From an uncultured candidate division Zixibacteria bacterium (lineage in GTDB: Bacteria > Zixibacteria > MSB-5A5 > GN15 > FEB-12), in the NCBI GenBank assembly GCA_937900185.1, contig CALCCW010000229.1, positions 1 to 53,830 of the forward strand: a stretch of 53,830 nucleotides of DNA. Direction: 5' to 3'. The translations under genes were made by a program, and so were the position numbers. Of the stretch, positions 17,751 through 32,565 are shown in pieces (the stretch's first letter is position 1; each line of letters starts with the position of its first letter). Under the pieces are notes generated by a model. That model worked only from the letters and a program-made list of their open reading frames with translations. It made no database searches and was not told where the DNA came from.

Positions 17751-17751
17751 T

Positions 17752-18078: not shown

Positions 18079-18091
18079 TCAATTATCTGCA

Positions 18092-18325: not shown

Positions 18326-18339
18326 AATTTTATCTCCTA

Positions 18340-18570: not shown

Positions 18571-18975
18571 TCATAATAGCTCCTTAATATCTGTTACAAT
18601 ACCAATATTGTCATGGTACAAATCTGTCTCTTCAAATTCAGATCTTGTAATTCCGAATCTCATATAACCATCAAGATGAACTTTAATAATATTATCATCA
18701 AAACGGTTTCCAGTTTTAATGGATATAAATTTAGCACCGGTCGAATCGGCTAAAGCGAACATCCATTCACCATAGACAACTTGTCCAATCTTAATAAAAT
18801 GTTTATTATCCAATGCTTCTTCTCGGAGTTTAAGCCTTTTATTATACTCTATAATACGTTCTTTTAAATCTTTTATTATAGATTTATAATGTATTATATC
18901 ACGAATAATCCCTTCTGTATCTTCAATGATTGGCTCATCTTTAAGATAAGCGTCGAATTTATTTTCTCTTTTCAT
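18571..18975 (-). CDS. Hypothetical protein
   Basis: 134 aa. The RBS is preceded by the 17-bp repeat at 18983-18999. Confidence 0.65.
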   Translation of the reverse strand: MKRENKFDAYLKDEPIIEDTEGIIRDIIHYKSIIKDLKERIIEYNKRLKLREEALDNKHFIKIGQVVYGEWMFALADSTGAKFISIKTGNRFDDNIIKVHLDGYMRFGITRSEFEETDLYHDNIGIVTDIKELL

Positions 18976-19011
18976 AATAATTCTCCTGTGGCTTAGCCAA
19001 TATCAATATTA

Positions 19012-19344
19012 TTACCAAATATATTGATACCAATTGTATTTCTTAAATAGTTTCTTATACTCGAAATCAGTGGCGGCAGTTAATATCCACACGCCACTGC
19101 CATTTGCACAAAGCAACGGAAAATCTCTCATTTGAGACGGTTGCAATTTATAGTTTTTCGGTCTCTTAACTTCAATCCACCTCGGACCGAAACTGTAATG
19201 AGTTGCATACAAATCCGGAAAACCGGTCTGGTACATATTACCGTTGGTAACTTTTACAAACCATTCTTTTTCCCGAAGCATAGCAATTATCTCACGTTGT
19301 ATGACGCTCTCTAATTTCTCCTTTTTATTATTTAGTGGTTGCAT
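19012..19344 (-). CDS. VRR-NUC family nuclease
   Basis: GFPDLYA...RWIEVKRP (PD...ExK) in a 110-aa protein. Confidence 0.7.
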   Translation of the reverse strand: MQPLNNKKEKLESVIQREIIAMLREKEWFVKVTNGNMYQTGFPDLYATHYSFGPRWIEVKRPKNYKLQPSQMRDFPLLCANGSGVWILTAATDFEYKKLFKKYNWYQYIW

Positions 19345-19561
19345 GCCTGATAACCATACCTTTAAACACTATTACCGCTTCATCAATAAGCTGTGATTCT
19401 TGCGGAAACTGTTTTTTCAATGCCGATATTGTTCTATTGACTTCTGCTATTGCAGATCCTTTACCAAACTGCATATTACCCATTAAGACATTAAACAAAT
19501 CTTTAGCGAATGCATTTACACGTTTAGCATGACGTTCTTTTCTTTCTTTTCTGTTACACAT
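19328..19561 (-). CDS. Hypothetical protein
   Basis: The track start at 19567 is TTG. ATG 19561 is preceded by AAAGGAGAATTGATT. Confidence 0.55.
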   Translation of the reverse strand: MCNRKERKERHAKRVNAFAKDLFNVLMGNMQFGKGSAIAEVNRTISALKKQFPQESQLIDEAVIVFKGMVIRHATTK

Positions 19562-19563
19562 AA

Positions 19564-19863
19564 TCAATTCTCCTTTATTTCATCTGTGTTAATAATACGA
19601 ATATTGCTTTTCAATTCAAACTCCGGCTTAGCACAATGTAACAACCTGCCACATTTACCGATTCCATCCATTCCCAGCCATTCCTTAACAACTGCAATGT
19701 CCTGCGAACGTTGCAATTCTCCGTTTTTCCGGAGACGGTATTCTTCACCATGTTTCATTTTAATTACGGAAAAAGACCCGTCTTGCAATTTCCATCGAAT
19801 CATTGTACTCGATTGATAATTACGTTTACCTACATTATCAAGATGCTTTAATAATTCTTTCAT
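19564..19863 (-). CDS. Hypothetical protein, tandem paralog A
   Basis: MKELLKHLDNVGKRNY... Start at ATG 19863, in an ATGA overlap with the upstream paralog. Confidence 0.6.
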   Translation of the reverse strand: MKELLKHLDNVGKRNYQSSTMIRWKLQDGSFSVIKMKHGEEYRLRKNGELQRSQDIAVVKEWLGMDGIGKCGRLLHCAKPEFELKSNIRIINTDEIKEN

Positions 19864-20072
19864 TTTACAATCTCTGTATTGAACCATTTTATTGCTTCTG
19901 TAAAATCATAAGTCTTTTTAACTTCATTTTTAGTACGAAGTATAAAAACTTTTTTCCATCCAACTACTCTAACTATTGAGAAGAACCCTTCTTTTAAACT
20001 CCATTTATCCATAGACGGTGAATGATAATTACGTTTACCTACATTATCAAGATGCTTTAATAATTCTTTCAT
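19860..20072 (-). CDS. Hypothetical protein, tandem paralog B
   Basis: MKELLKHLDNVGKRNY... The first 16 residues are identical to paralog A. Confidence 0.6.
   Translation of the reverse strand: MKELLKHLDNVGKRNYHSPSMDKWSLKEGFFSIVRVVGWKKVFILRTKNEVKKTYDFTEAIKWFNTEIVK
19868..19881 (-). promoter_or_regulatory. Start-associated motif CAATACAGAGATTG (variant), 4 nt before ATG 19863
   Basis: Minus-strand read: CAATACAGAGATTGTAAAATG. Confidence 0.6.
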
Positions 20073-20076
20073 TTTA

Positions 20077-20090
20077 CAATCTCCGTATTG
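20077..20090 (-). promoter_or_regulatory. Start-associated motif CAATACGGAGATTG, 4 nt before ATG 20072
   Basis: Minus-strand read: CAATACGGAGATTGTAAAATG. Confidence 0.65.
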
Positions 20091-20336
20091 TTATGCTATT
20101 TCAAATTTACCGTCTTCATTAAAACGTAAAAGAGACATCTCAATATCAGTCCTGCTTGTAAGTACATAATACAATGGGTCAACATCAAAATATGCTACAC
20201 ATTTATGTTCCTGAAAAAGATTAACATTGTGTTCAATCTCTTCATAAGTTTCAGATTTTTTTACATATTTTACTTTTAATCCACTGATTAAAGTAATTTG
20301 CTCTTCATTCAATTTACTACTTGTAACTACTAACAT
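20091..20336 (-). CDS. Hypothetical protein
   Basis: 81 aa; GAGGAG RBS. Confidence 0.6.
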   Translation of the reverse strand: MLVVTSSKLNEEQITLISGLKVKYVKKSETYEEIEHNVNLFQEHKCVAYFDVDPLYYVLTSRTDIEMSLLRFNEDGKFEIA

Positions 20337-20521
20337 TTTTCAAACTCCTCTACAATGGAATAAATATCAATATTTATTCCATTGAGTTTATAAGTGATAT
20401 AAATTCTACCACGATAATTATTCATAATACATTCAACGATATTTTTACCAAAGACGGCTGAACCGTCATTCATATTCACACCGTTGAATTCTTCAACTAA
20501 ATCACTAAAACACATTACCAT
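20330..20521 (-). CDS. Hypothetical protein
   Basis: 63 aa; GAGGAGGG RBS. Confidence 0.55.
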   Translation of the reverse strand: MVMCFSDLVEEFNGVNMNDGSAVFGKNIVECIMNNYRGRIYITYKLNGINIDIYSIVEEFEKC

Positions 20522-20631
20522 TTTATTGCCCTCCTCAAAGATTTAATTCCGCACTGCCCCAGCAACCACAAAATCAATACGAATATTGTAAATGCTCCGC
20601 TAATCATTGTCCCTATTAATAATACTTCCAT
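20515..20631 (-). CDS. 38-aa membrane peptide
   Basis: Not in the track. MEVLLIGTMISGAFTIFVLILWLLGQCGIKSLRRAIKW, overlapping both neighbours. Confidence 0.45.
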   Translation of the reverse strand: MEVLLIGTMISGAFTIFVLILWLLGQCGIKSLRRAIKW

Positions 20632-20873
20632 TATAGAATTTCTCCTTGATAAAAGACATAACAAGGTATGTCATATTCAGATGCAAACTTCATGAGTACC
20701 GGACAATCTGTCTGGAAAAGGAAAACATTATATTTATTTTCAATACACAAATTTAATAATTCATGCCAATTCATATTGTTAATGTTTTCATAACGGTGTT
20801 TACGTTTACCAATAAAACCATTAACCATTTCCTGTCTTTCTTCGCCAGTTCCGTCATTGATTACGATAGTCAT
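20631..20873 (-). CDS. Hypothetical protein
   Basis: 80 aa; ATGA overlap with the upstream small ORF. Confidence 0.6.
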   Translation of the reverse strand: MTIVINDGTGEERQEMVNGFIGKRKHRYENINNMNWHELLNLCIENKYNVFLFQTDCPVLMKFASEYDIPCYVFYQGEIL

Positions 20874-21013
20874 TTTATCACCATAATATCATAGTCCAGA
20901 CAAAGAAGAATTATTCTGTCAAGCATTCTTCTTGCCTCGAAATTTCCACGTGCAATACCCATATTGCATTTCGTTACCAGACGTTCCAACCGACATTTTG
21001 TGTAACCGCTCAT
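20870..21013 (-). CDS. 47-aa hypothetical protein
   Basis: Not in the track. AGGAGG RBS; MSGYTKCRLERLVTKCNMGIARGNFEARRMLDRIILLCLDYDIMVIK. Confidence 0.5.
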   Translation of the reverse strand: MSGYTKCRLERLVTKCNMGIARGNFEARRMLDRIILLCLDYDIMVIK

Positions 21014-21053
21014 TTGATTACCTCCTGTGCATATCAATATCAATATTGAAAAT

Positions 21054-21097
21054 AAAAAAGGGTTAAACTATACATAGCATATAGTTTAACCCTTTTT
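21054..21097. terminator. Bidirectional intrinsic terminator (13-bp GC-containing core stem extended by A/T pairs, 7-nt loop)
   Basis: AAAAAAGGGTTAAACTATA-catagca-TATAGTTTAACCCTTTTT. An A-run precedes it and a T-run follows, so it works on either strand. Confidence 0.8.
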
Positions 21098-21120
21098 AAA
21101 ACTATATGCTTTTTATTTAG

Positions 21121-21188
21121 CATACTGATATTGATATACGATTTTGCAATATCAATATTGCAATACCGCATTGTCAATATCGCATTGA
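21121..21188. repeat. Array D1: five tandem ~14-bp CAATAY-N-RTATTG-type units
   Basis: CATACTGATATTGA / TATACGATTTTG / CAATATCAATATTG / CAATACCGCATTGT / CAATATCGCATTGA. Confidence 0.85.
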
Positions 21189-21218
21189 CAAACTGAACCT
21201 TTTTCTAGTTCATAAAAT

Positions 21219-21246
21219 AATATACAGCCCGCAATAATAAATTCAA
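21219..21246 (-). promoter_or_regulatory. Sigma70-like promoter TTGAAT-16 nt-TATATT (minus strand), reading into array D1 and the terminator
   Basis: Minus-strand read: GAGCTTGAATTTATTATTGCGGGCTGTATATTATTTT. Confidence 0.4.
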
Positions 21247-21303
21247 GCTCTAAACTAAAAATAATTGAATCTTTTTTTATATTATATATTGAATTTGCGT
21301 GTA
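21239..21303 (+). repeat. Conserved block Z, copy D
   Basis: AAATTCAAG...TAAAAATAATTGAAT...TTGAATTTGCGTGTA is similar, in the same orientation, to 31718-31784. Confidence 0.75.
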
Positions 21304-21332
21304 GCATAAATCGTGCCAACTAATATTGGGAT

Positions 21333-21360
21333 TAATACCGTATTCACAATACCGTATTGC
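21333..21360. repeat. Array D2: TAATACCGTATTCA + CAATACCGTATTGC
   Basis: Two tandem 14-bp units overlapping the last codons and stop of 21344..21814. Confidence 0.85.
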
Positions 21361-21814
21361 GAAAATGTAGCAACACAAACATATCATTTAGTTGTAATAT
21401 TGGTATTGCTTTTATAGCTGTATCTATACACAAGAACTCTTCTTTAATATATGCTTTACAAATCATATACAATTCATTGTTTGAATCTATTGCACGTTCA
21501 GCAAGTTTCTTAATATTGATATTGTTTACCGCTCCGGAAAAATAATTTACATCTATATCTCTATGTAATAACCACGCTACACTTTCCCACGCCTCACTGT
21601 AAACAAGAAATTTAACTAATATATCAACATTCTCTATCTCTCTGGGAAAGTCTGCTATCTTATAACCGAGCCGGTAATAGAGATACTGAAATAATAAAAC
21701 TTCTGCACTCCGATACATTCTATTACCAATAAATGAGTAGAAGAGCGGGTAAAAATTCTCTGCTCTAATATCTCTTTTACTCGCCATCTTTTTAATTCGT
21801 TTTATTTTTATCAT
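21344..21814 (-). CDS. Hypothetical protein
   Basis: 156-aa ORF; no motif recognised. Confidence 0.6.
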   Translation of the reverse strand: MIKIKRIKKMASKRDIRAENFYPLFYSFIGNRMYRSAEVLLFQYLYYRLGYKIADFPREIENVDILVKFLVYSEAWESVAWLLHRDIDVNYFSGAVNNINIKKLAERAIDSNNELYMICKAYIKEEFLCIDTAIKAIPILQLNDMFVLLHFRNTVL

Positions 21815-21838
21815 TTGTAAACCTTACTGGTTTTATCA

Positions 21839-22252
21839 CTAACTGTTAAGTGCCTCATAAACACCTTTAACTTTTTCACATTTAGTGCCTTCAACATTAA
21901 AGTGTTTAGCCAGTGCATTTAGTCTTAGCGGTAGTTCACGGTCTCTAGCAACTTCCATTATATCTATGAATTTACTGATTCTGACTCCTGCGTTAAGCAA
22001 GAATTTAGCAGTAAATTTACCACAGTGAAACACTGCTATATCATCCTCAAGTATTCCACCATATTGTTGTTTAAACTCTTCACGCTCCATACCGGTATTG
22101 CAGTCTAAGCCATTAAATTTCATAGCCTTTTCATCCGGCTCTTTTATTGCCTTAATATTTATTGTTGTCATATCACCATCTAGTATATTTAACTGAATCA
22201 GTTCATGGTCTTGTCCTCTTAAGCCCGTTGATTCAATACTTACGAATTTCAT
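21839..22252 (-). CDS. DnaQ-like 3'-5' exonuclease fold protein, possibly degenerate (putative)
   Basis: MKFVSIESTGL resembles the ExoI DxETTGL motif but lacks the Asp. ATG 22252 is preceded by GGAGCAATT; the track start at 22318 is TTG. Confidence 0.4.
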   Translation of the reverse strand: MKFVSIESTGLRGQDHELIQLNILDGDMTTINIKAIKEPDEKAMKFNGLDCNTGMEREEFKQQYGGILEDDIAVFHCGKFTAKFLLNAGVRISKFIDIMEVARDRELPLRLNALAKHFNVEGTKCEKVKGVYEALNS

Positions 22253-22478
22253 AATTGCTCCTTTTTTAAATTTAACTTTACAAATATAATACTCACCAAA
22301 TTGTGTTTTACTGTGCAATTCCAGTACTTCTGTTACTGATAAATCATCCAGTATTTCTACTAATGCTTTATGTGTTGGATATTTTGAAACAATGCCAATA
22401 TTATTTCATCATCTTCACAGTTACTATGATCTCTATCATAAAGTATATACATAATTGCTCCTTGCGGTAATACCGCGA

Positions 22479-24554
22479 TTAATGTGTGTCAATCCATGAT
22501 GACATTTCTTGTTTCCATGTAATGCCAAAATGCTTAATCAATTTACGTGTCTCACTTACATAGGTTTTAACAATGCCATCAACATCTGCCGGAACTGAGT
22601 TATAACAGAGAATTTCATCATGAATATTCATAGGCATAACTACTGGTTTACTTACACCGTAGAGTTGCAATGCCCATATTTCTGCTTGTAACATCTTCAT
22701 CAATTCCGCACCGGTTGATTGCACAACATGATTAACTGCCTGCCTACCGCAACGTGATTGCATCCCATAGATTGCACCCCACAATGCTGATATTGTCGCA
22801 TTTTTCGCAGTCTGTTTACCTTTATTTGTTGTCCTAATTACCATAATCCCATCATTTAAATTATCTATTTCCTGCAATGCCTCCTTATACTCTTTAATTA
22901 TTTTCTCTTCTAATGTAAAATACCGTCTATGACCTAATAGACTGGCAACATAGTTCCGTCTAAACTCTTCCCTATCCTCATGCGTTGTAAAATCTTCCAT
23001 AATCTCAGCACGGTTTTTAGCAAATCCATCATATCTAATATGGAACTTTTTCTCTATAGTTGTTGCAATGCTCTCTTTTACACCCATTCGGAATGTAAGA
23101 GTATGAGCATTTCCACCATAGAACAATGCGTATGTTCCGTTTTTACCTAATACATATAAATCATTCTGACTACCTTTAGTTGCTACAACTTCATCATAGC
23201 TTTTACCAAATGCTTCAGCCGCAAGGAATACCGGTATTTTATAACCATTAGTTAAATCAATGTCCATCTGTTTATCTTTATGCACTGCTTGAGCAATACT
23301 AATCTCGAAAACATCTGCATCACCTCCCGATAAAACATAATTATCAGACTTATCATTGAATGTAAATATCTTCCTAATTGTTTCTTCTCTCGCAATGCCT
23401 TGCGGATTGATTTTACCGCCACCACTCATTCTGTTAGTGAGTGTACCGCAAATGCGGAATTCCGGATAAAACCTTTTAGCATGGAGCAATTTCTCCATAA
23501 GTTTACAGCGTGATTGTGCCTTCCTTGCCTTGATAACGAGTTTAGCCCTTTCCGCCGGTTCGCCGTCCATAAGTTTCGCAATATTTTGCAATGTCAATGC
23601 CTTAGTATCCTGAATCATTACAGCATCTAATTCTTCCATAGGCTCTGTTACATATTCCAATACTGCTCTTGGTGCTGTCGGTGCTAATCTTTTATCGTTA
23701 TTATACTGGTCATACTGTCTTTGTACTTCATCAATATCAATAGCAAAACCTTTACATTTAACATTTGCCGCCATTATTGCAAGTTCATTATCATAATGCC
23801 CGCATTGTAAATTAAAATCTGCTTTTAAGTTACGGAGATACTGGATATCATTTTTAGCATATTGTATAGCTATATCATTAAACATCCAATGGTCTATCGA
23901 ACGTTCAAGTTTATGTTTCTCCATGCGATTTTCCCAATGACAATATCCGCCTTCATCTTCCCAATACATATCTAAGTCAATAGTACCTTCACCATAGATT
24001 TTCCTAATTAAACGTTTCAACGGCAATCCCGGTTTCCATGCAAAATAAACATTGACAAATCCATCAATATCACCATCGCTTATCTTCCAGAACTCTTTTT
24101 TATCTCCTATTTGTATGTCGCTGAAACATTCATTCAATATCAGTATTACGTCATCAACCATCGAGCCGGGAATCTTATAAATCGTTGGTCGTTTACGAGC
24201 CATTAAATCTTGGAAATGAGTTTTACGGAACTCAAGCATAATATCCAATGCCCCTTGCGGACGCAGAAACCAATCAGTTTGGAATGTCTGATTTATTGCA
24301 TCGAACTGGTCTAACAACATTTCATAAGGCTCTATCTGTTTACAAATGTTATATAATTTAACAAGCATGAACCAGTCAAATGTTAAATTATAGGCACAGA
24401 TTTCATGCTCGCAAAACATTTCAATCAATGCCATAATTGTTTTAGGTGTTTCATACCATAAATTCATAATCTCGATATTGCCATCATCTATAGCATATTG
24501 TATAGTTATTGGCAATGTATTAAGACTATATGTTTCTGTATCTAGGTAAATCAT
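22479..24554 (-). CDS. Family A DNA polymerase with N-terminal 3'-5' exonuclease
   Basis: IYLDTETYSL (ExoI), GGDADVFEISIAQ (motif A-like) and NIHDEILCY (motif C). Start set to ATG 24554, which has an AAGGAG RBS. Confidence 0.9.
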   Translation of the reverse strand: MIYLDTETYSLNTLPITIQYAIDDGNIEIMNLWYETPKTIMALIEMFCEHEICAYNLTFDWFMLVKLYNICKQIEPYEMLLDQFDAINQTFQTDWFLRPQGALDIMLEFRKTHFQDLMARKRPTIYKIPGSMVDDVILILNECFSDIQIGDKKEFWKISDGDIDGFVNVYFAWKPGLPLKRLIRKIYGEGTIDLDMYWEDEGGYCHWENRMEKHKLERSIDHWMFNDIAIQYAKNDIQYLRNLKADFNLQCGHYDNELAIMAANVKCKGFAIDIDEVQRQYDQYNNDKRLAPTAPRAVLEYVTEPMEELDAVMIQDTKALTLQNIAKLMDGEPAERAKLVIKARKAQSRCKLMEKLLHAKRFYPEFRICGTLTNRMSGGGKINPQGIAREETIRKIFTFNDKSDNYVLSGGDADVFEISIAQAVHKDKQMDIDLTNGYKIPVFLAAEAFGKSYDEVVATKGSQNDLYVLGKNGTYALFYGGNAHTLTFRMGVKESIATTIEKKFHIRYDGFAKNRAEIMEDFTTHEDREEFRRNYVASLLGHRRYFTLEEKIIKEYKEALQEIDNLNDGIMVIRTTNKGKQTAKNATISALWGAIYGMQSRCGRQAVNHVVQSTGAELMKMLQAEIWALQLYGVSKPVVMPMNIHDEILCYNSVPADVDGIVKTYVSETRKLIKHFGITWKQEMSSWIDTH

Positions 24555-24583
24555 ATTGACTCCTTTAGAACTCTTCATCCTGA

Positions 24584-24844
24584 CTATATTCGTCTTGAAT
24601 TTAATGCTCCCTTTACACGTTTACACTCCCGTAATGTTATTTCTGTTTTTGCGTTAAAATACATTAATACTGATGCTTGATTACCGCAATAGGGGCACTT
24701 TCTTGTGAGATTATTAACAGGACAATAACCATGTGTACTTACTTTCTCACAGGTATTACATTTAGCATCCACGCTCTTACATGTATACCTATATGGTAAT
24801 TGCCCTGTTGCTTTATAATGTAAATGTTCAATAAATGTCATCAT
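24584..24844 (-). CDS. Zinc-ribbon protein
   Basis: 86 aa; CNTC...CPYC. Confidence 0.55.
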   Translation of the reverse strand: MMTFIEHLHYKATGQLPYRYTCKSVDAKCNTCEKVSTHGYCPVNNLTRKCPYCGNQASVLMYFNAKTEITLRECKRVKGALNSRRI

Positions 24845-24911
24845 AATTAACCTTTTTATATTATGCTTTATGTATTCTCCCGCACGGCTGGCAATAACCT
24901 GTTCGATATTT

Positions 24912-25277
24912 TCATACAGTAGGGTTATTATTTTTTAAGATTTTCCGGAGTTGTTTAACCTCTTTTAATGCTTCAAGATATTTCTCCTGATAAGGTACTA
25001 GATTTGCTGGTGTTCCGTTACGTACACGCTTAAAGATAATATTAGTTTTATCCTTTCGGGCAGCAGCACGACAAGCCCCGAAAAAACATGGTATTACTCT
25101 TGTTATTCGTAATAAACCACAATTATGCATGCTGCATGACGCTCTCAAGTAACCTTCATCATGGAAATAGCAGCCATGACATCTTAAATAATGGTCTTCT
25201 CTTTTCTGGTCAACCACTTTGAATTTCTGATCAAATAATGCCAGTATTGTCCCAATCTCATGTGTTTTACATCTCAT
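24912..25277 (-). CDS. Cys-rich hypothetical protein
   Basis: The track start at 25283 is TTG. ATG 25277 is preceded by CAATACGGAGATTGACA. Confidence 0.55.
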   Translation of the reverse strand: MRCKTHEIGTILALFDQKFKVVDQKREDHYLRCHGCYFHDEGYLRASCSMHNCGLLRITRVIPCFFGACRAAARKDKTNIIFKRVRNGTPANLVPYQEKYLEALKEVKQLRKILKNNNPTV

Positions 25278-25280
25278 TGT

Positions 25281-25294
25281 CAATCTCCGTATTG
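25281..25294 (-). promoter_or_regulatory. Start-associated motif CAATACGGAGATTG, 3 nt before ATG 25277
   Basis: Minus-strand read: CAATACGGAGATTGACAATG. It overlaps the CCA end of the tRNA-like element. Confidence 0.65.
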
Positions 25295-25410
25295 GTGGGA
25301 GCGGTAGGGATTTGCACCCTACATGGTTATTCTATGAGTACCCTAGTTACTTAGTTCACCAGCCAGCAACCTCTTCTCTTGTTAACGTCTACCTATTCCG
25401 CCACACTCCC
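25293..25410 (-). ncRNA. 118-nt tRNA-like element: tRNA-Leu-like acceptor stem, D-arm, T-arm and encoded CCA, but a non-canonical 62-nt core
   Basis: 5' GGGAGUG pairs with CGCUCCC, followed by A-CCA. UGGCGGAAUAGGUAGACG closely resembles the bacterial tRNA-Leu D-arm. The T-arm is GUAGGG-UGCAAAU-CCCUAC. No 5-bp/7-nt anticodon arm could be found between positions 27 and 88. Confidence 0.45.
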
Positions 25411-25448
25411 GTATTGTTATTTATATCTCTTATATGTTATTTTAACTT

Positions 25449-25817
25449 TCATTGTTTAATCTCCTTAACGTGTATCGTCCCAACTACTTCGCACTTTGCT
25501 ATATCAATCCACTTCTGATATAACGGCATACCGGTTTTCCATTCTTTTGTATTTTCGTTTTTAATCCACCAACGAGATTCCTCTTCGTTCCATAATACAG
25601 AGAATATCCTTCCCATTCTGCCTTTGATTTTATCGCCATCGGAAATCAGAGTTCCATTACAGTCTTTAATGCCCGTGCAAAATTCAATAACTCGCCCTTT
25701 TGTGTGCGGACGATTATTATGCCAGAGATTACCTGAGGTATCAATTTTCATTATGTCTTTTTCATAATTAGAATGATATTCACACCATACTCTGAATCTT
25801 AATCTATCGTTATTCAT
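25449..25817 (-). CDS. YopX-family protein
   Basis: RFRVW..., FCTGIKDCNGTLISDGDKI, VVGTIH; typical YopX pattern. Confidence 0.65.
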   Translation of the reverse strand: MNNDRLRFRVWCEYHSNYEKDIMKIDTSGNLWHNNRPHTKGRVIEFCTGIKDCNGTLISDGDKIKGRMGRIFSVLWNEEESRWWIKNENTKEWKTGMPLYQKWIDIAKCEVVGTIHVKEIKQ

Positions 25818-25821
25818 CGCT

Positions 25822-25835
25822 CAATCTCCGTATTA
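25822..25835 (-). promoter_or_regulatory. Start-associated motif TAATACGGAGATTG, 4 nt before ATG 25817
   Basis: Minus-strand read: TAATACGGAGATTGAGCGATG. Confidence 0.65.
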
Positions 25836-25928
25836 TTTACCTAACCATTGTTCTATTGATATTACTGCACAAAGAAGTATAAATAATAATATTGCTATTC
25901 CGATAGACAATAAAAAATCAATAAACAT
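25833..25928 (-). CDS. 31-aa membrane peptide
   Basis: Not in the track. MFIDFLLSIGIAILLFILLCAVISIEQWLGK, preceded by GACGGAGATTAAAG. Confidence 0.45.
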   Translation of the reverse strand: MFIDFLLSIGIAILLFILLCAVISIEQWLGK

Positions 25929-25945
25929 CTTTAATCTCCGTCTTA

Positions 25946-26140
25946 TTACTCGTAACGCTCACTCTTAAGATATTCAGCAATGCTTTTAATATCTTTCTTA
26001 CCCCAATTATCTGCTGACTTAACTGTTGCACCTGCCGCATCAAGTATAGCACAAACACGACAATATGGGCATCCGTCACAATCAGTATCACATCTATTAT
26101 AGATTTCTCTTAATTCTTTCTGTTGTATAAATATTCTCAT
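25946..26140 (-). CDS. Small Cys-rich protein
   Basis: 64 aa; CDTDCDGCPYCRVC. Confidence 0.55.
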   Translation of the reverse strand: MRIFIQQKELREIYNRCDTDCDGCPYCRVCAILDAAGATVKSADNWGKKDIKSIAEYLKSERYE

Positions 26141-26496
26141 TTTTTATCTCCTATAGTAATTAATTTCATTGCTTCTTTTTTGGTTGCAATACGAGCATTG
26201 TCCCACCAGTGTCCATTAGCATAATATTGAGAACTGCAATGTTCAGTTACCACAAAAATACTACCTTCATCTTTATCATATACCATGCATAATTTACCTA
26301 CAAGCTCTTCACCTATAGGTTTGTCCCATTCGGGACACCAGTAAGCATTACTATTATGCATAGGTTGAGGTGTTAAGATCTCAACCCACCCTTCTACAGG
26401 TGTATACATAATAAGTGTTTTACAATTATATAAAATCTTTCGTTCTTCAGGAGTTGTCATTCCAAACACAACACCTTTTCTGTTTTTGTCAATCAT
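26137..26496 (-). CDS. Hypothetical protein
   Basis: The track start at 26502 is TTG. ATG 26496 is preceded by AATACGGAGATTGATT. Confidence 0.6.
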   Translation of the reverse strand: MIDKNRKGVVFGMTTPEERKILYNCKTLIMYTPVEGWVEILTPQPMHNSNAYWCPEWDKPIGEELVGKLCMVYDKDEGSIFVVTEHCSSQYYANGHWWDNARIATKKEAMKLITIGDKK

Positions 26497-26499
26497 AAT

Positions 26500-26513
26500 C
26501 AATCTCCGTATTA
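26500..26513 (-). promoter_or_regulatory. Start-associated motif TAATACGGAGATTG, 3 nt before ATG 26496
   Basis: Minus-strand read: TAATACGGAGATTGATTATG. Confidence 0.65.
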
Positions 26514-26524
26514 TTTAAATGACA

Positions 26525-27376
26525 TTATGCAAAATCCGGTACAGTATAAGGTATATCATAAATGTCAAGTTCTTTCTGGATTGCTTGGTGAAATTCCAAA
26601 TCCGAAACTTCAGCATTAACCCAACCTAAAGTTACATTTATAATATTAGGTCCGAGTAAACCATGTAACATTTCCTGTATGTCATGTATTTCTCCAGGTC
26701 TACGTAACTTCTTTTTACTCTTGGGTTTAGAGTCTTTAAACTTATCAATATTAACCTTTTTATCGCCCTTATTAGTCTTAATAACACGACATAATTCATA
26801 CTGTTTCTCAGGCTCTTTACGAAGAGTATATAAATCTCTAATATTATTTGTTGTAAATTTACAACGCAATACCTCTTCCTGTATATCTTCAGGAATTGTC
26901 GTAAACATGTTGCGTACTTGACACCAACCGAAACTCATGCCAATTTTATCTGCAATCTGTTGTAAACTCATACCAGTATTGCGTAGAGTTTCAACACCTT
27001 TAGCTTCTTGAGCAATGTTTAAATCTTCTCTTTGAACATTCTCTGTTAAGTTAGTGAGAATCATTTGTGTTAATGATAAGTCTTTCAATATACAATCAAA
27101 CTCTTTATCACCGTTTACTAACAATGCTGTATAACGTCTATGTCCTGCTACAAGCTGGTATTGGAAACCATTCTCTGTAGCGACCTCACTTCTACTAACA
27201 ATAAGCGGATTCTGTAAGCCGTTTTCAGCTATATCAGCGGCTAATGCCAGTGTTTTTGGTGCTGAGGGATTTACCTTACCACGACAGTTAAAATCCCAAT
27301 CTACGAATAATTCCTTTTTCTTGACTTTAATCAGTTGCATTCCTTTAACTTTTTCCATTACTTTAACTTTTTCCAT
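26525..27376 (-). CDS. ParB/Srx-domain protein with HTH (ParB-like 2)
   Basis: NPLIVSR...YQLVAGHRRYTAL, LTENVQREDLN, and the HTH MSLQQIADKIGMS. AAGGAG RBS. Confidence 0.8.
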   Translation of the reverse strand: MEKVKVMEKVKGMQLIKVKKKELFVDWDFNCRGKVNPSAPKTLALAADIAENGLQNPLIVSRSEVATENGFQYQLVAGHRRYTALLVNGDKEFDCILKDLSLTQMILTNLTENVQREDLNIAQEAKGVETLRNTGMSLQQIADKIGMSFGWCQVRNMFTTIPEDIQEEVLRCKFTTNNIRDLYTLRKEPEKQYELCRVIKTNKGDKKVNIDKFKDSKPKSKKKLRRPGEIHDIQEMLHGLLGPNIINVTLGWVNAEVSDLEFHQAIQKELDIYDIPYTVPDFA

Positions 27377-27415
27377 TTTCTTGCTCCTTTATAGCTTTTA
27401 ATACATACACTACAA

Positions 27416-27625
27416 TTAAATTAAACCTAACCTTTCTTTCATCATTTTACGTTTACCTTGTGGACTCTTACAGAAATCAATTTTCTTCTGTTTAGACTCT
27501 TGTAATTCTTCCAAAGCAATATCAGTATCTGTTGTATAACCACAATACCGACATTGTATATGGTTGTCATTAACTACTGCTTTTTTACCACACTTTTCAC
27601 ATCTGATATTAAAATTATATATCAT
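27416..27625 (-). CDS. Zinc-ribbon protein
   Basis: 69 aa; CEKCGKK...CRYCGY. Confidence 0.55.
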   Translation of the reverse strand: MIYNFNIRCEKCGKKAVVNDNHIQCRYCGYTTDTDIALEELQESKQKKIDFCKSPQGKRKMMKERLGLI

Positions 27626-27906
27626 GACAACTCCTTCACATATTTTTCAGACTCTAATATCAATGCATGTTTACCGTCATACCAAGCAGTATTTACCCAC
27701 TTATAAAATATATCATAAGTTCCTGCACCTATATCATTAGGATCACATTCATGCAGTTTTGTCTTTTTAGTATAGACTTGAATTATTTTAACTTTCTCTA
27801 ACCACCTTAATTCATTATCTATAATTAGTGGCAATATCAAAAACTTCTCTTTAACTCTAACTGTATTTTCAGCAATAACCTTTATTTTTTTAAATCTGTA
27901 TTTCAT
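27622..27906 (-). CDS. Hypothetical protein
   Basis: 94 aa, preceded by CAATACGGAGATTAAAA. Confidence 0.6.
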   Translation of the reverse strand: MKYRFKKIKVIAENTVRVKEKFLILPLIIDNELRWLEKVKIIQVYTKKTKLHECDPNDIGAGTYDIFYKWVNTAWYDGKHALILESEKYVKELS

Positions 27907-27909
27907 TTT

Positions 27910-27923
27910 TAATCTCCGTATTG
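27910..27923 (-). promoter_or_regulatory. Start-associated motif CAATACGGAGATTA, 3 nt before ATG 27906
   Basis: Minus-strand read: CAATACGGAGATTAAAAATG. It starts right after the SNF2 stop codon. Confidence 0.65.
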
Positions 27924-29453
27924 TTATGACCTATTCCATTCTATTTTTTCAAGCTCTAACATCATTTCCTGCATAGTAACTTTCTGTAATTTTTTCTTAT
28001 TCTCTAAATTACAGCGTACATACTTATCTGTAGGTAAATGATATAAGTCAATGATATTTGCTCCTAAACATCCTGGTCTGTGAATACGGTCTTCACTTTG
28101 CATACGTGATTCACCATCAAAATCATTACTGTAATAAATGATAGTGTCACTAGCAGTTAAGTTCAAGCCCGTGCCACCGGATTTAGGGTGATTAACGAAC
28201 GCTATTTTCTCATCAATACTGGTATCCATAAACTTCTTAAGTGTTTCTGCGATATCAGCATCAGCGGCATTAATTGTCATCCAACCTAAACTGGTCATTC
28301 TCTCACGAACCCATTTCACAGACTCAATATATCCTGCAAATATCACAACACGGTTTTTTCCAGTAACTAATTCTTCTAATATCTCAATCTTAGGATTATC
28401 AGTAACACGAATTGCTTTACCATCGCTATAAATAAATCCATCAGATAGTTGCCTACATTTATTTAATGCTTCAATAGTAGTACCCGCATTCTTCAATAAG
28501 AAGTTATAACGTTGATACACTTTACCGGTCATCGGTAACACATATTCCGTATATACTTTCTCCGGTAAATCGAGACATTTATCTTTGTCAATGAATATGG
28601 TTATTTTATCTTCCAACGATTCACGGAATTTATTTAATTCATCTTCTTTCCATGATTCGACCTTACTGTAAGAATGACTCTGTTCCGTGCCATCATCCTC
28701 ACTTAAATCTACTGTTACTACATTTGCTACTCGTTCACGGAATTTGTAAATATCGCCTTCAGGGATAAATCCGGGACACAATGTTTCAATTTGATTCCAC
28801 CAATCTAATGGGTCTTTCGGTGCAGGAGTACCTGTCATTGCAATAATGAATGGGTTATCATGTTCTTCTCTCATAGCATCAGTTAAGTGCATAGCCGATT
28901 GACTGCGAATACTGGTATTATTTTTAATCTTATGTGACTCATCAAATATCACTCCCAACGGGGCTACACCATCATAATTCTTTAAGTGTCTTGTTAAGCC
29001 TTCATAAGTCTGGAAGAATGGATATACATGACAATCCCATTTTTCCATTTCCATCTTAACAGATAATAATGCTGAACGTGGTGCTATATACCACCAATCG
29101 CTGACACCGCTATGTTCCATTATTTCTATTGCAGAGAGAGTTTTACCGACACCCATTGTAGCCGCTATAAAACAAATATGCTTATTTAAAGCGAATTTAA
29201 CTATATCAGCTTGGTGTTGATAAATTGGTCTTGTAAAAGTTATATCAATATTGGTATCATTTTCCCATTGTTCATAGACATTAATACCCTGTATAGCTGA
29301 TAATACAAAACGATTGTGTGGGTTGTCAAGAACTTCCCATACTTTAATTTCAGGTTTCCATCTTGCACTTTTAAGTTTCTTGACTTTTTCAATTAGGCTT
29401 GGAGAATAACCGAATTTAAGAATAAGGTTAGTTCCTTTTTTGAAGATATTCAT
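27924..29453 (-). CDS. SNF2-family (SF2) helicase/ATPase
   Basis: ATMGVGKT (Walker A), IFDESHKIKN (DExH) and GGTGLNLTASDTIIYY...QSEDRIHRPG (motifs V-VI). The track start at 29486 is TTG; ATG 29453 follows GAGGA. Confidence 0.9.
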   Translation of the reverse strand: MNIFKKGTNLILKFGYSPSLIEKVKKLKSARWKPEIKVWEVLDNPHNRFVLSAIQGINVYEQWENDTNIDITFTRPIYQHQADIVKFALNKHICFIAATMGVGKTLSAIEIMEHSGVSDWWYIAPRSALLSVKMEMEKWDCHVYPFFQTYEGLTRHLKNYDGVAPLGVIFDESHKIKNNTSIRSQSAMHLTDAMREEHDNPFIIAMTGTPAPKDPLDWWNQIETLCPGFIPEGDIYKFRERVANVVTVDLSEDDGTEQSHSYSKVESWKEDELNKFRESLEDKITIFIDKDKCLDLPEKVYTEYVLPMTGKVYQRYNFLLKNAGTTIEALNKCRQLSDGFIYSDGKAIRVTDNPKIEILEELVTGKNRVVIFAGYIESVKWVRERMTSLGWMTINAADADIAETLKKFMDTSIDEKIAFVNHPKSGGTGLNLTASDTIIYYSNDFDGESRMQSEDRIHRPGCLGANIIDLYHLPTDKYVRCNLENKKKLQKVTMQEMMLELEKIEWNRS

Positions 29454-29483
29454 TGCCTGTTCCTCATTTTTATTATTGGTAAT

Positions 29484-29497
29484 CAATACGAGTATTG
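29484..29497. promoter_or_regulatory. Single palindromic unit CAATAC-GA-GTATTG upstream of the SNF2 gene
   Basis: Perfect 6+6 inverted repeat, same family as the arrays at 21.1, 31.6 and 32.2 kb. Confidence 0.6.
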
Positions 29498-29620
29498 AAA
29501 AAGCAGTTTAACGTGATACTTAGCACGTTACGTTATAGTCGTAATAGACTGCAATGGAATGTTTCCACACCATCTAAGTATTATAGCTACTCACGGTCAG
29601 TTTAACCTGCACGATAGCTA

Positions 29621-30217
29621 TTAATCTTCTTCGTCCGGCAAAACGTTTTCAGCGTTTTTAAAATCACCTACGACATCATTTGTGTCATCAGGCAAATCTA
29701 TAGTTTTCGCTGTACCTTCGCTTTTGTAAGAAAACCATTTAAATTTATCATTACTACACTGGTCAACTTTCAAATGAGAGCAAGCACCCATATGTTTTGC
29801 AATGCTTTTACCACGTCTTTTTGCCGTTGTACTTTTCAGATAAAACGTGCAGAATCCGTGTTCAGTATAAAAGATAAATTCAGGTCCGCTTGTTGCATAA
29901 TCTTCCTCTTTTGCTTCTTCAGCAATCTTTGCAAATTCGGCATGATTCTGGTCATAAACAATACGGAGTTTAGGTTCAAATGCTAATGCTTTTGCTCTCA
30001 TTGCAAGAACCATTACATCAATTTCAGTACCTAAATCTATAGACTCTTCACCATCTTTCAGATAGAAGTGTCCTACCGATATAGAACCATCTTGACAACA
30101 TGCACTGTTACCACAGCTGATTTCCAATCTCGGCATTGTATCATAACCTGCGAACAGGTCATTGAAATTTTCAAGAGCCGAAGCATCTTGAACCATCAGT
30201 TCGTTCTTTTTAGCCAT
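29621..30217 (-). CDS. Hypothetical protein with acidic C-terminal tail (possible ssDNA-binding protein)
   Basis: 198 aa ending ...NVLPDEED. Located in the replication module. The functional call is weak. Confidence 0.3.
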   Translation of the reverse strand: MAKKNELMVQDASALENFNDLFAGYDTMPRLEISCGNSACCQDGSISVGHFYLKDGEESIDLGTEIDVMVLAMRAKALAFEPKLRIVYDQNHAEFAKIAEEAKEEDYATSGPEFIFYTEHGFCTFYLKSTTAKRRGKSIAKHMGACSHLKVDQCSNDKFKWFSYKSEGTAKTIDLPDDTNDVVGDFKNAENVLPDEED

Positions 30218-30252
30218 TTTGACTTTTTCTCCTTGCCCTTTCGGGGCTTAAA

Positions 30253-30424
30253 AATCCTAGTATTGTAATTGGTCCTTTACCTGACGAGCAGTAATGCTAC
30301 AGCCCCGTTTAACACGTAACTGATGGCTCACCGTCATGCCACTTAAATTAGAAACTACTCTAACTGCATTTTATTTAAATTTACATTTAGTAAGTCTGTA
30401 AAGGACCAATACAATACTAGGATT
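30253..30424. repeat. Long inverted repeat (28/27-bp arms, one indel) enclosing 117 nt; candidate structured RNA or DNA cruciform
   Basis: Arms are AATCCTAGTATTGTAATTGGTCCTTTAC (30253-80) and GTAAAGGACCAATACAATACTAGGATT (30398-424). They contain CAATAC/GTATTG half-sites. Confidence 0.85.
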
Positions 30425-30477
30425 GTGTTTAATTAATTACCGAATGTAATTAATATACTGTTACAGAACCTAAAAGG

Positions 30478-31416
30478 TTATTTTGTATTTGCTTCGTCAA
30501 GAAGTGCTTGAGCTTTGGCTCTTTTAGCTTCTTCACGTTTCTTAGCCGCAATAGCTTGACGCTCATCTTTTTCTTTCTTGAGCTGTTCAAATTTAGCTCT
30601 GCCAGCATCAATACTGAGATCATCCATCTGAACAATCCATTTGATTACAGCCTGTCCGCCTTCAACAGCGTTTTTGCAATCTGCAACAATTTCTTTCACA
30701 ACAGACATATCTGCATACAGGTCTTTAATCTCTGTATTTTTACGAACTTTAGGTTCGGGCATAAATTCAGTAACAGTCTGTCCACGTTTTTCTTTCTTAA
30801 TATCATTAAGACGTGCTTTAACTGTAGGACCAAATTCACTTGCAGGTTCTGTAAGTGCGGCTGACAAGTAATTAGCTTGTTCATCAGACGGAAGTTTAGC
30901 AAGACTAAAAGCATTACTAAGCCCAATATCTCCGTTGTCAACTTTCTTCTGAATATCAGCATTGAGTTTCAACAAACCTATGCGTTCATTCAGCCATTGT
31001 TCAGTACAACAAAGCATTCCACACAATTCTTTAAATGTCATTGTAGGACGTTCACCGAAGATTTTAATAATCTGACGGGTGTACTCAATAGGTTTAGTTT
31101 TGACTCTGCGTGAGTTACTGATAATCTGAGCAATCGCCATTTCTTCATCGCCCATTTCAACGATATTACATGGAATCCCTTCAAGACCAAGTTCTTTACT
31201 TGATGTGTAACGTTGCAAACCATTAACAAGTACATACTTGCCTTTTTCTTCAGTCTTCTTAACACAAATAGAATCTGTAACACCGATCTTAGCGATTGAA
31301 TCTCTCAACTGCTTGTAATCTTCACCCTCGGTGTTTACTGAACGCAATGCAATTTCACTTGTTTCGATGTTTTCAAGTTTTACTACAGCGACTTCAATCT
31401 TTCTTTTCTCTGACAT
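30478..31416 (-). CDS. ParB-like protein 1
   Basis: KYVLVNGLQRYTSSKELGLEGIPCNIV..., ISNSRRVKTKPIEY (ParB box-like), with a Lys/Glu-rich C-terminus. AGGAG RBS. Confidence 0.7.
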   Translation of the reverse strand: MSEKRKIEVAVVKLENIETSEIALRSVNTEGEDYKQLRDSIAKIGVTDSICVKKTEEKGKYVLVNGLQRYTSSKELGLEGIPCNIVEMGDEEMAIAQIISNSRRVKTKPIEYTRQIIKIFGERPTMTFKELCGMLCCTEQWLNERIGLLKLNADIQKKVDNGDIGLSNAFSLAKLPSDEQANYLSAALTEPASEFGPTVKARLNDIKKEKRGQTVTEFMPEPKVRKNTEIKDLYADMSVVKEIVADCKNAVEGGQAVIKWIVQMDDLSIDAGRAKFEQLKKEKDERQAIAAKKREEAKRAKAQALLDEANTK

Positions 31417-31510
31417 GATAATGTCTCCTGTTACCTAAGTTACTTTCCAATATCAGTATTCCTTAAACTTGACGGTGTACTTCGCACGGTCTCTTAACAA
31501 TACCAGTATT

Positions 31511-31552
31511 AAAAAAAGGGTTACATTATGACAGACAAGCATAATGTAACCC
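31511..31552 (-). terminator. Intrinsic terminator oriented for the minus strand, with no upstream minus-strand gene
   Basis: Minus-strand read: GGGTTACATTATG-cttgtctgt-CATAATGTAACCC followed by TTTTTTT. Confidence 0.75.
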
Positions 31553-31593
31553 ATAACCTTAAAGGTTTAAATTAAATGTTGTGTCTGTGATCA

Positions 31594-31649
31594 CAATACC
31601 AATATTGCAATATCCATATTACAATACCGTATTGACAATACCGTATTAA
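31594..31649. repeat. Array F1: four exact-phase tandem 14-bp units
   Basis: CAATACCAATATTG / CAATATCCATATTA / CAATACCGTATTGA / CAATACCGTATTAA. Confidence 0.9.
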
Positions 31650-31717
31650 TTTTGTGAGCGTAATTAAAAATCACACTCAAAAATCTAACTCAAATATAAG
31701 TTACCATTCATTATTAA

Positions 31718-31784
31718 AAAGTCAAGTGTTATTAGTAAAATAATTCAATATTTTTTCCTTTATAATATAATGAATTTGCGTGTA
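31718..31784 (+). repeat. Conserved block Z, copy F
   Basis: AAAGTCAAG...TAAAATAATTCAAT...TATAATATAATGAATTTGCGTGTA is similar to 21239-21303. It contains TTCAAT-16 nt-TATAAT on the plus strand. Confidence 0.75.
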
Positions 31785-31895
31785 ACACGTTAAACTTAAA
31801 AGTCAAGTCAATTACTGAAAATACTGTTTTATTTTTTCAGTAAGGAAAAACAGTAAATTGATAAAACGTTTAAACAGAATAACTTATACCGGAAA

Positions 31896-31975
31896 TTACT
31901 AATATACTGTTCTTTATATTTATTACTTATAGAACATAATCAAGTTAGTGTTTATATATAGAGATAGGAAAAAAC
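31896..31975 (-). repeat. Repeat element Y, copy F (inverted relative to 12959-13040)
   Basis: The reverse complement reads TTTTTTCCTATCTCTATATATAAACACTAAC...AACAGTATATTAGTAA. Confidence 0.8.
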
Positions 31976-32089
31976 AGTAAAATAGTATGAATAAGACTTG
32001 AAATATGTTTTTCCGGTGTTAAATTAAATTATATGCGGAATATATCGTTTAATCATTAACGTTTAAACTATTAAATTAAGCTATTCCGC

Positions 32090-32145
32090 TAACGTGAGTA
32101 CGTTGAAAACAGTTTAAACGTATATGAGTATAGATTAGGTTTAAG
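32090..32145 (+). repeat. Repeat element X, copy F
   Basis: TAACGTGAGTACGTTGAAAACAGTTTAAACGTATATGAGTATAGATTAGGTTTAAG, compared with 12801-12853. Confidence 0.85.
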
Positions 32146-32165
32146 ATTGCTTAGAATTGTTTAGT

Positions 32166-32220
32166 TAATACCGTATTGACAATACCGTATTGTAATTGTT
32201 CTAAGACAATACTGGTATTA
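32166..32220. promoter_or_regulatory. Array F2: TAATACCGTATTGA / CAATACCGTATTGT / (13 nt) / CAATACTGGTATTA, overlapping the probable rightward early promoter
   Basis: Contains TTGACA (32176-81) and TTGTTC-17 nt-TATTAA candidates. It lies 35-90 nt upstream of ATG 32254. Confidence 0.6.
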
Positions 32221-32253: not shown

Positions 32254-32565
32254 ATGCTAAATAAGATTTTATCGGATAAGCGAGTTTTAACAGATGAAAC
32301 AAACTTTAATATTGGACAATACGGGGATTGTAAAATGATAAATATCCCAGCTAGTTATTTATGTAAGCTGTGGAAAAAGGTTTACAATAAACCGTGTCCA
32401 TTACATTATTACATAGCAGATGCTTTACCAATACTGAGATTGGAGCATAAACATATTTGGGCTGAACCAGATTTAAGTGATTATAATTTAGATATTTTTA
32501 GTAATTGGAAACCAGATTTAAGTGATTATATATTTGAGCCGGATGTAGATAAATTTGAACCTTAA
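32254..32565 (+). CDS. Small protein, DUF3820-like (putative)
   Basis: FNIGQYGDCKMINIPASYLCKLW resembles the DUF3820 fGKYkG..l.diP..YL.W pattern. ATG 32254 has an AAGGAG RBS; the track start TTG 32176 lies in the operator array. Confidence 0.4.
   Translation: MLNKILSDKRVLTDETNFNIGQYGDCKMINIPASYLCKLWKKVYNKPCPLHYYIADALPILRLEHKHIWAEPDLSDYNLDIFSNWKPDLSDYIFEPDVDKFEP

Follow-up and report, generated by a model that had tools for sequence, protein, structure and literature searches.

Arrayed palindromes in the early control regions of a phage-like genome as candidate sites of orphan ParB-family proteins

What reads the short palindromes that are arrayed head to tail in several control regions of contig CALCCW010000229.1, and are they read as DNA or as RNA? 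The 53,830-nt stretch analysed here, referred to as the window, is a phage-like genome (G+C 33.8%) that encodes two ParB-family proteins, ParB-A and ParB-B, in the same leftward gene block. We found that the arrays belong to a larger set of enriched sites in the early/replication half of the genome, and that their layout is kept in related loci in which the palindrome itself changes with lineage. Judged from these sequence comparisons, the sites on balance probably serve a KorB/Noc-like orphan ParB (ParB-A, ParB-B, or both) as operators or as loading points.

Enriched palindromes and their modules in the early half

Minus-strand late and structural genes occupy 0.1-12.5 and 38.4-53.7 kb of the window, and between them lie an early/replication block read leftward (13.7 to 31.4 kb) and a rightward block (32.25 to 38.3 kb). 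The repeated unit is the palindrome CAATA(C/T)-N1-2-(G/A)TATTG of 13 or 14 bp, built from the 6-nt half-site CAATA(C/T) in two spacings, 6+1+6 (CAATACCGTATTG) and 6+2+6 (CAATACCAATATTG). It stands 5 to 40 times above shuffled sequence. With at most one mismatch, CAATAYCNNTATTG has 54 matches against 1.41 ± 1.2 in dinucleotide shuffles, and CAATA-N3/4-TATTG has 69 against 14.4 ± 3.7 expected. All 12 perfect sites fall within 17.3-32.2 kb, and 49 of the 69 sites within 12.5-38.4 kb; 24 of these 49 are non-coding, compared with 23% non-coding DNA in that interval. Besides the arrays there are ~30 single sites, nearly all in the early/replication half and often just upstream of gene starts. Indeed, among the single sites between 16.6 and 21.05 kb, 11 of 15 stand 5-40 nt before the ribosome-binding site or start codon of small leftward genes (assigned by eye on the sense strand).

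The arrays at 21.1 and 31.6 kb are paralogous modules that share one order on the minus strand: a conserved box, a sigma-A-like promoter, a spacer of 25-45 nt, the array, a terminator, one or two single sites and the ribosome-binding site of the first gene, which in the 31.6 kb module is ParB-A. Within its leader, the array at 31594-31649 follows the leftward promoter and precedes the terminator and ParB-A. The 32.2 kb array is without a terminator and is separated from the 31.6 kb array by an AT-rich central region of 500 bp.

The first-pass annotation of this DNA, made from the letters alone, had described tandem arrays of a single 14-bp unit at four sites and had asked for a shuffled-sequence control of their enrichment, which the counts above supply and bear out. 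The 14-bp-phase arrays at 21.1, 21.3, 31.6 and 32.2 kb are present, as are the perfect single copy at 29484-29497 and the sites in each arm of the 30253/30398 inverted repeat. The array reported at 21121-21188 is also real, with three clear and two degenerate units in place of the five claimed, and the palindrome stands, as units of two spacings and not of one. The sites listed there hold; the ~15 single sites at 16.6-21.05 kb had been missed. Of the repeats named as related, the 16-bp repeat at 16171-16246 exists and is off consensus at 2 of 10 core positions, and those at 13.4-13.6 kb are present as the variant TAATA-N4-TATTA, for which kinship to the motif is plausible only. The proposal that units in control regions behave as protein-binding DNA sites is supported, and the 32.2-kb array does lie over promoter-like elements before the rightward block, namely a TTGACA hexamer and the extended -10-like sequence TGgTATTAT. 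The placement of two arrays between a promoter and a terminator, and the spread of sites through the early operon, go beyond what that annotation could see.

Several observations concern the sites themselves. Four near-identical start cassettes, CAATAC-GGAG-ATTG-taaa-ATG, are found at 20077-20090, 19868-19881, 25281-25294 (-) and 32317-32330 (+); each has the Shine-Dalgarno sequence at the centre of a motif-like palindrome, and two precede paralogous small genes beginning MKELLKHLDNVGKRNY. The inverted repeat at 30253-30426 might fold as RNA or loop as DNA, and a search of Rfam gives no match for it. The cluster at 13405-13626 is a possible variant array. We also considered the sites as promoters in general and rejected this, as some units contain TTGACA or TGnTATTGn but position 6 of the -10 element is not conserved, and promoter scans did no better than shuffles.

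Related loci keep the layout and change the palindrome

A search with the ParB-A protein gave 13 relatives, and a metagenome scan then gave 80 loci (numbered with the prefix L). Neither cultured phages (INPHARED) nor IMG/VR gave a close relative: INPHARED has no DNA match and no PolA-protein match, and a tblastn search of it with ParB-A found only six distant matches at 25-29% identity; IMG/VR gave no match by protein pattern or by array sequence. In the relatives the gene order is kept: a DUF5906 primase-helicase operon, the divergent region, ParB-A, a ~200-aa protein, an SNF2 helicase, ParB-B and PolA. Palindromes of 13/14 bp stand directly upstream of ParB-A in the window, in L001-L003, in L006 and in more than 20 further loci.

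Three loci, L001-L003, with ParB-A 56-72% identical, carry the CAATA motif in the layout of the window, including a terminator whose stem has changed and still pairs. Arrays homologous to that at 31594-31649 occur in L001-L003 and L006, and the array at 32166-32220 has its counterpart position at 7478-7560 in L003 and 540-600 in L002. The terminator hairpins of L001, L002, L003 and L006 are equivalent in place and different in sequence, with compensatory pairing; the role of these conserved leader terminators is accounted for by none of the readings considered below. The promoter pattern TTGA(C/A)T-16-TATATT is kept in five aligned loci (the two window copies and L001-L003).

Two further elements accompany these leaders. 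A box TAC(A/G)CGCAAAT.C.(T/A)TATAT lies ~60 bp upstream of the leader promoter in 5/5 aligned loci (window 21283-21306 and 31760-31789; L001 ~85-110, L002 ~1105-1130, L003 ~7995-8020). Immediately before each leader terminator, in the window (31553-31575, minus strand) and in L001-L003, there is a small conserved hairpin with the motif AAACC...GGTTATGG, which may be an alternative pairing partner in attenuation.

More distant loci keep the arrangement with other letters. In L006 (ParB-A 41% identical) the layout and the 14-bp phase are retained, and the palindrome is instead CTCAGC-G-GCTGAG (CTCAGCGGCTGAG), whose core occurs at 23 sites against 0.5 expected, as arrays and scattered singles. 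Enrichment in the metagenomic relatives was judged on the 43 loci of at least 6 kb, against the best count in any simulated sequence; about half of them have an enriched 5+N3/4+5 palindrome, with half-sites TGATT (~20 loci), TGATA, TGTTA or TGGTA. L051, whose G+C content is 50%, has 23 perfect copies of TGATT-N4-AATCA within 10 kb, where 0.01 would be expected. There (421-10105) the sites recur every ~440 bp, more evenly than random (coefficient of variation 0.51 vs 0.94, P = 0.0008), and in L011 (1227-13130) perfect copies recur every ~850 bp; in L051 and L011 alike, many of the sites are found within long genes. Counted over 32 loci, 35 sites fall in the 100 bp before ParB-A, 9 times the background density (1.27 per kb), and in the same comparison sites are enriched ~twofold upstream of ParB-B.

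A resemblance of TGATT-N4-AATCA to FNR, Fur or Cheo (LexA) boxes was considered and is doubtful, as the spacings differ. In L011 (4262-4303), L007 (97-130) and L010 (603-638) the TGATT pair that precedes ParB-A has, just upstream of it, paired copies of a second palindrome, TCTCAAAAATGAGA, which the other ParB paralog or a further regulator may bind.

Candidate binding proteins and competing explanations

Both ParBs match ParB_N (PF02195) at 35-40 bits (cut-off 26.3), and the ParB-type helix-turn-helix (HTH) domain PF17762 at 20.8-22.4 bits, just below its cut-off of 22.6; the latter is found in most relatives. A ParB-A profile matches structures of Spo0J, ParB, Noc (E ~1e-22) and KorB (E 1.5e-13) across the N-domain and HTH, the whole range being 1e-22 to 1e-13. 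ParB-B passes the TIGR00180 cut-off and ParB-A falls slightly under it; the best NCBIfam similarity of both is to Noc, at 71-75 bits, far under the Noc cut-off of 315 bits. In the CTP pocket, for which the reference motifs are GxRRxxA (box II) and ENxQRxDL (box III), ParB-B has GHRRYTA and ENVQREDL; ParB-A has GLQRYTS and SNSRRVKT, retaining an arginine, the asparagine and a second arginine. The ParB-A family comprises 969 clusters at 50% identity (E <= 1e-30).

Of the candidates named in the first-pass annotation, the two ParB-like proteins hold up as the best, since both carry ParB_N and a ParB-type HTH and match Spo0J/Noc/KorB; the small HTH protein at 37746-37967 gained no supporting evidence. 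The suggestion of parS-like sites is not supported. Pfam scans of 30 window proteins gave no match to ParA, CbiA or AAA_31, nor do the precomputed Pfam assignments of L004-L006 (genes within 10 kb on either side) include one, and the ParA-binding motif, LG[KR]GL or more broadly (L/F/I)G(K/R)G(L/F/I) (PMC12704722), is absent from both ParB sequences on direct reading. Because no ParA was found in the proteins scanned, a partition centromere is unlikely. A relation to ParB-activated thymine dioxygenases was also considered and rejected, as the ParBs of that system have no DNA-binding domain (PMC13229309) and no dioxygenase was found in the scans of window proteins.

Together, these features suggest that the units would be double-stranded-DNA sites of a dimeric phage-encoded ParB-family protein (ParB-A, ParB-B, or both), used in a manner like KorB/OB of plasmid RK2 or Noc/NBS and unlike a partition centromere. 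Tandem arrays would act as high-occupancy operator or loading clusters, with those at 31.6 and 32.2 kb on either side of the divergent early control region and those at 21.1 and 21.3 kb on either side of an internal early promoter, and the single sites would extend occupancy along the operons of the early/replication half. We infer negative feedback and temporal shut-down of early transcription as the likely outcome, possibly through promoter occlusion at 32.2 kb and, at 21.1 and 31.6 kb, a roadblock ahead of the leader terminators. Further routes may be a CTP-dependent sliding clamp of the KorB kind or, in place of repression, VirB-like anti-silencing.

The evidence points to the ParB pair without choosing between its members, because the site cluster stands at the promoter of a block that includes both genes and the helix data are mixed. 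Recognition helices differ between motif classes in both paralogs. Within the CAATA clade ParB-A keeps xC...W and ParB-B keeps MSFGW(V/C)QVR, and loci of the TGATT class share an almost invariant ParB-B helix, SRGWVQVR. The first-pass annotation had proposed that co-variation of the arrays with a DNA-binding protein in relatives would reveal the binder; the relatives do show arrays upstream of ParB-A and a motif that changes with lineage, and this does not separate ParB-A from ParB-B. We therefore rejected co-variation as a means of choice: both helices are clade-specific, ParB-A is variable within a class, and ParB-B is constant but four loci are without the motif. The ParB-B-bearing contigs of CAATA-clade relatives are too short for arrays.

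Several points weigh against assigning the sites to the ParBs. The link of the sites to the ParBs is one of association and lineage-level co-variation, and because motif class follows phylogeny, co-variation cannot separate ParB-A, ParB-B or another co-inherited protein. The ParB-A helix is highly variable among loci that share TGATT, and L005, L022, L046 and L068 have the common ParB-B helix with no TGATT enrichment. The ParB-A pocket is without the catalytic glutamate of box III and one arginine. ParB, Noc and KorB sites are not known to form abutting 14-bp arrays or to mix 13- and 14-bp spacings. Furthermore, two of the arrays lie in transcribed leaders before terminators, which fits an RNA-level or attenuation role too.

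The explanation that survives best beside the ParBs, though we consider it unlikely, is that some other DNA-binding dimer uses the sites as its operators, be it a host factor or a small phage regulator that was not recognised, and that the ParBs are co-inherited bystanders. Ten early proteins have no match in Pfam, PHROG or NCBIfam and many early genes are unannotated; motif class tracks phylogeny, which any lineage-specific protein would fit equally; and the ParB-A helix varies inside a single motif class. However, the two ParBs are the only conserved sequence-specific DNA binders recognised across 80-plus loci, and the site cluster stands at the promoter of the gene block encoding both. The motif also switches between phages (CAATA, CTCAG, TGATT, TGATA, TGTTA), which argues against a single conserved host factor. 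Ribbon-helix-helix proteins read centromere or operator arrays of short direct or inverted repeats of 7-11 bp (omega heptads, ParR/ParG iterons). The present units might likewise be taken as pairs of 7-mers, although in the 13-bp form the register moves by one; Pfam scans that took in part of the small proteins gave no ribbon-helix-helix match.

An RNA reading was tested because two arrays lie in transcribed leaders. Leader hairpins could serve as nut/boxB-like antitermination sites or as a decoy, and sites near ribosome-binding sites as translational operators. Like N/nut sites, the 21.1 and 31.6 kb arrays and their homologues in L001-L003 and L006 lie between an early promoter and a terminator, downstream of the one and upstream of the other, both conserved; many single sites stand 5-40 nt before a Shine-Dalgarno sequence, and four copies have GGAG at the centre. 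The 32.2 kb array, by contrast, has no terminator. One-mismatch sites show no sense-strand excess of G·U over A·C (14 vs 14 in the window, 27 vs 31 in relatives), so that recognition appears to be at the DNA level, and hairpin conservation is not restricted to the transcribed strand as in N/nut sites. The central base is a sense-strand G in one array, and hence one leader loop, and C in another, and varies between loci without being tied to the direction of transcription. A hairpin with a 3-4 nt loop on a stem of 5 bp, A/U in composition, is weak, no Rfam family or tRNA was found, and in relatives sites are evenly spaced inside long coding regions. Strand symmetry and variable loop bases led us to rule out RNA hairpins as such, and an RNA-level role for the arrays is improbable. 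The strand symmetry, the variable central base, the lack of an Rfam match and the sites in coding regions of relatives together point to duplex DNA read by a symmetric dimer.

Replication-origin iterons of the lambda O type, flanking the central 31.8-32.16 kb region beside the primase-helicase gene, are an equally poor prospect. The sites of lambda O are four palindromes beside an AT-rich stretch, and here the arrays bracket a 500-bp AT-rich non-coding region that has its own repeats (CGTTTAAAC, AACAGTAAA) and adjoins the DUF5906 primase-helicase and replication genes. However, arrays and ~30 singles occur at many other places, up to 15 kb off, relatives have 15-23 evenly spaced sites, and the conserved context is that of a promoter and terminator. 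Recombination or module-junction sequences that shuffle small early genes, like the PeSL cassettes of T4-type phages, would suit sites at gene junctions in the small-gene block and the four start cassettes, two before paralogous genes, but are very improbable, as they leave unexplained the tandem promoter arrays, the sites inside conserved long genes and a lineage-wide switch of palindrome with the layout kept.

If the sites are indeed ParB sites, a broader role can tentatively be imagined, which we regard as possible but rather doubtful. A widespread phage lineage with a partner-less ParB pair, the canonical clamp ParB-B and the degenerate-pocket ParB-A, might coat its early/replication half from arrays and evenly spaced sites as a virus-encoded chromatin-like layer. 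Such a layer could silence, anti-silence (VirB-like) or shield phage DNA in lytic growth, with a specificity code that switches between lineages.

Coordinates are collected in Table 1; other elements of the window are as follows. CGTTTAAAC occurs five times against 0.53 expected, always in two non-coding control regions (12822-12903 and 31867-32120), where a second regulator or the replication initiator may bind it. The box TATATAGAG(N)ATAGGAAAAA occurs twice, at 12961-12980 (-) and ~31956-31975 (+), each copy facing the downstream operon (late genes and primase operon, respectively); similar boxes are found in the central regions of L002 and L003, and the box could be a phage-specific promoter or origin element. 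A 198-aa protein (29621-30217, minus strand) follows directly downstream of ParB-A, and does so in L001-L006, six of the relatives inspected. Pfam, PHROGs and NCBIfam give it no family match; from its acidic C-terminal tail (LPDEED) we would guess a replication protein resembling single-stranded DNA-binding proteins. The rightward operon encodes a D12-class N6-adenine methyltransferase (36074-36910, plus strand) and a dATP/dGTP diphosphohydrolase N-domain protein (37964-38332, plus strand), both kept in relatives; modification of DNA or editing of the nucleotide pool may be their role. The scanned proteins, several of which are unannotated, include no recognised integrase or repressor.

Both window ends are sequencing artefacts (1-125 and 53664-53830): poly-T junk followed by an Illumina P7 index adapter (61-125) on the left, and universal and TruSeq adapters with poly-A (53664-53722 and 53750-53777) on the right. 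True phage sequence spans ~126-53663, and the end-touching open reading frames 44-310, 104-754 and 53575-53807 are partly artefactual. Since adapters are found on both sides, the genome may have fixed physical termini.

Table 1. Positions of sites, genes and control elements in the window
Feature	Position	Strand	Details
Array, four abutting units in exact 14-bp phase	31594-31649		CAATACCAATATTG, CAATATCCATATTA, CAATACCGTATTG followed by A, CAATACCGTATTA followed by A
Array, three units (32166, 32180, 32207)	32166-32220		35-90 nt upstream of first rightward gene (ATG 32254)
Array, three clear units (21147, 21161, 21175) and two degenerate	21120-21188		Between leftward promoter-like site and terminator
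Two units in 14-bp phase	21333-21359		Upstream of conserved box and promoter; overlap stop codon of gene 21344-21814
About 15 single sites	16589-21048		16589, 16961, 17361, 17769, 17962, 18352, 18597, 18998, 19418, 19593, 19868, 20077, 20575, 20953, 21035
Two single sites (31448-31461, 31498-31511)	31448-31511		Between terminator and ParB-A start; flank conserved GACCG..CCGTCA block
Perfect single site	29484-29497		~25 nt upstream of ribosome-binding site of SNF2 helicase gene
Inverted-repeat arms, 28 nt (30253-30280, 30398-30426), one motif site each	30253-30426		Enclose ~117 nt between ParB-A and next gene
4.9 perfect copies of 16-bp unit CAATGCCAATATTATA	16169-16246		Between ligase stop and next gene; loosely motif-related, 2/10 core mismatches
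AT-rich cluster, ~9 TAATA-N4-TATTA-type units, 12/16-bp phase	13405-13626		Early/late boundary
ParB-A, orphan ParB-family protein (ParB_N and HTH, Lys-rich C-terminus)	30478-31416	-	First gene after array and terminator
ParB-B, second ParB-family protein, HTH, canonical GHRR and ENVQREDL	26525-27376	-	Same leftward gene block
Intrinsic terminator, 13-bp stem and U run	31511-31552	-	Between array and ParB-A; -19.3 kcal/mol, z = -5.6
Intrinsic terminator, 19-bp stem, A and T runs flanking	21050-21097	-	Between array and small-gene block; -22.5 kcal/mol, z = -6.3
Putative sigma-A-like promoter, TTGACT-16-TAACTT	31698-31725	-	~40 nt upstream of array
Candidate sigma-A-like promoter, TTGAAT-16-TATATT	21219-21246	-	~25 nt upstream of array

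Comparison with known systems

KorB acts at 12 OB operators on the IncP plasmid RK2, with KorA/TrbA as clamp locks (PMC11790492, PMC13584720). The likeness lies in a ParB-family protein with an HTH, whose structures are matched by the ParB-A profile, in a 13-bp palindrome, in sites both near and far from promoters, and in autoregulation with a global transcription role, which for the phage system is proposed. In contrast to the phage system, KorB acts beside a ParA (IncC) and in partition, and OB sites are single, whereas the phage has abutting 14-bp arrays at far higher site density; no KorA-like partner was identified in the phage, and the element is a lytic-type phage and not a plasmid. Noc of Bacillus subtilis is likewise an orphan ParB paralog without ParA, with a 14-bp palindrome (NBS) scattered over the replicon, but Noc sites relate to division-site selection and the phage sites to phage control regions.

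Among phages, the stoperators of Cluster A mycobacteriophages (L5 gp71; see also PMC4351075) are asymmetric, oriented with transcription and bound by the monomeric immunity repressor of a temperate phage. As with stoperators, many copies of a short site stand in short intergenic gaps within operons (11/15; 24/49), with further copies at the early promoter; unlike stoperators, the phage sites are palindromic, with no orientation bias and none of the asymmetric one-orientation character, and no repressor or integrase was recognised. In the plasmid-prophage N15, SopB sites are inverted repeats scattered in the genome, some in promoter regions and affecting expression. N15, however, has SopA (a ParA) and is a plasmid prophage, whereas no ParA and no sign of lysogeny were found in the proteins scanned here. 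Cluster O mycobacteriophages carry more than 30 scattered 17-bp dyads, TGTTCGG-N3-CCGAACA, many at gene junctions and unexplained since 2015, and encode a ParB-like domain protein to which the dyads were not linked (PMC4351075). By description they are alike in scattered palindromes, a phage that is not obviously temperate and an encoded ParB-like protein; they differ in sequence and in their 7+3+7 geometry, and tandem arrays were not reported there.

Abutting 14-bp arrays, mixed 13/14-bp spacing, two ParBs without ParA and a lytic-type phage set the present system apart from the KorB, Noc, L5 and Cluster O systems. Orphan ParB-fold proteins are common in phages, and almost none has a known DNA target or role (PMC12704722). 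The work presented here assigns explicit candidate sites to full-length phage ParBs that have an HTH and form a large family, and offers natural specificity variants (CAATAC, CTCAGC, TGATT, TGATA, TGTTA) in a conserved promoter-array-terminator layout. Sites, variants and layout together make the role of a phage ParB directly testable with few proteins and oligonucleotides, and binding, if confirmed, would mean that regulation by a DNA clamp of the KorB type is found in lytic viruses as well as in plasmids.

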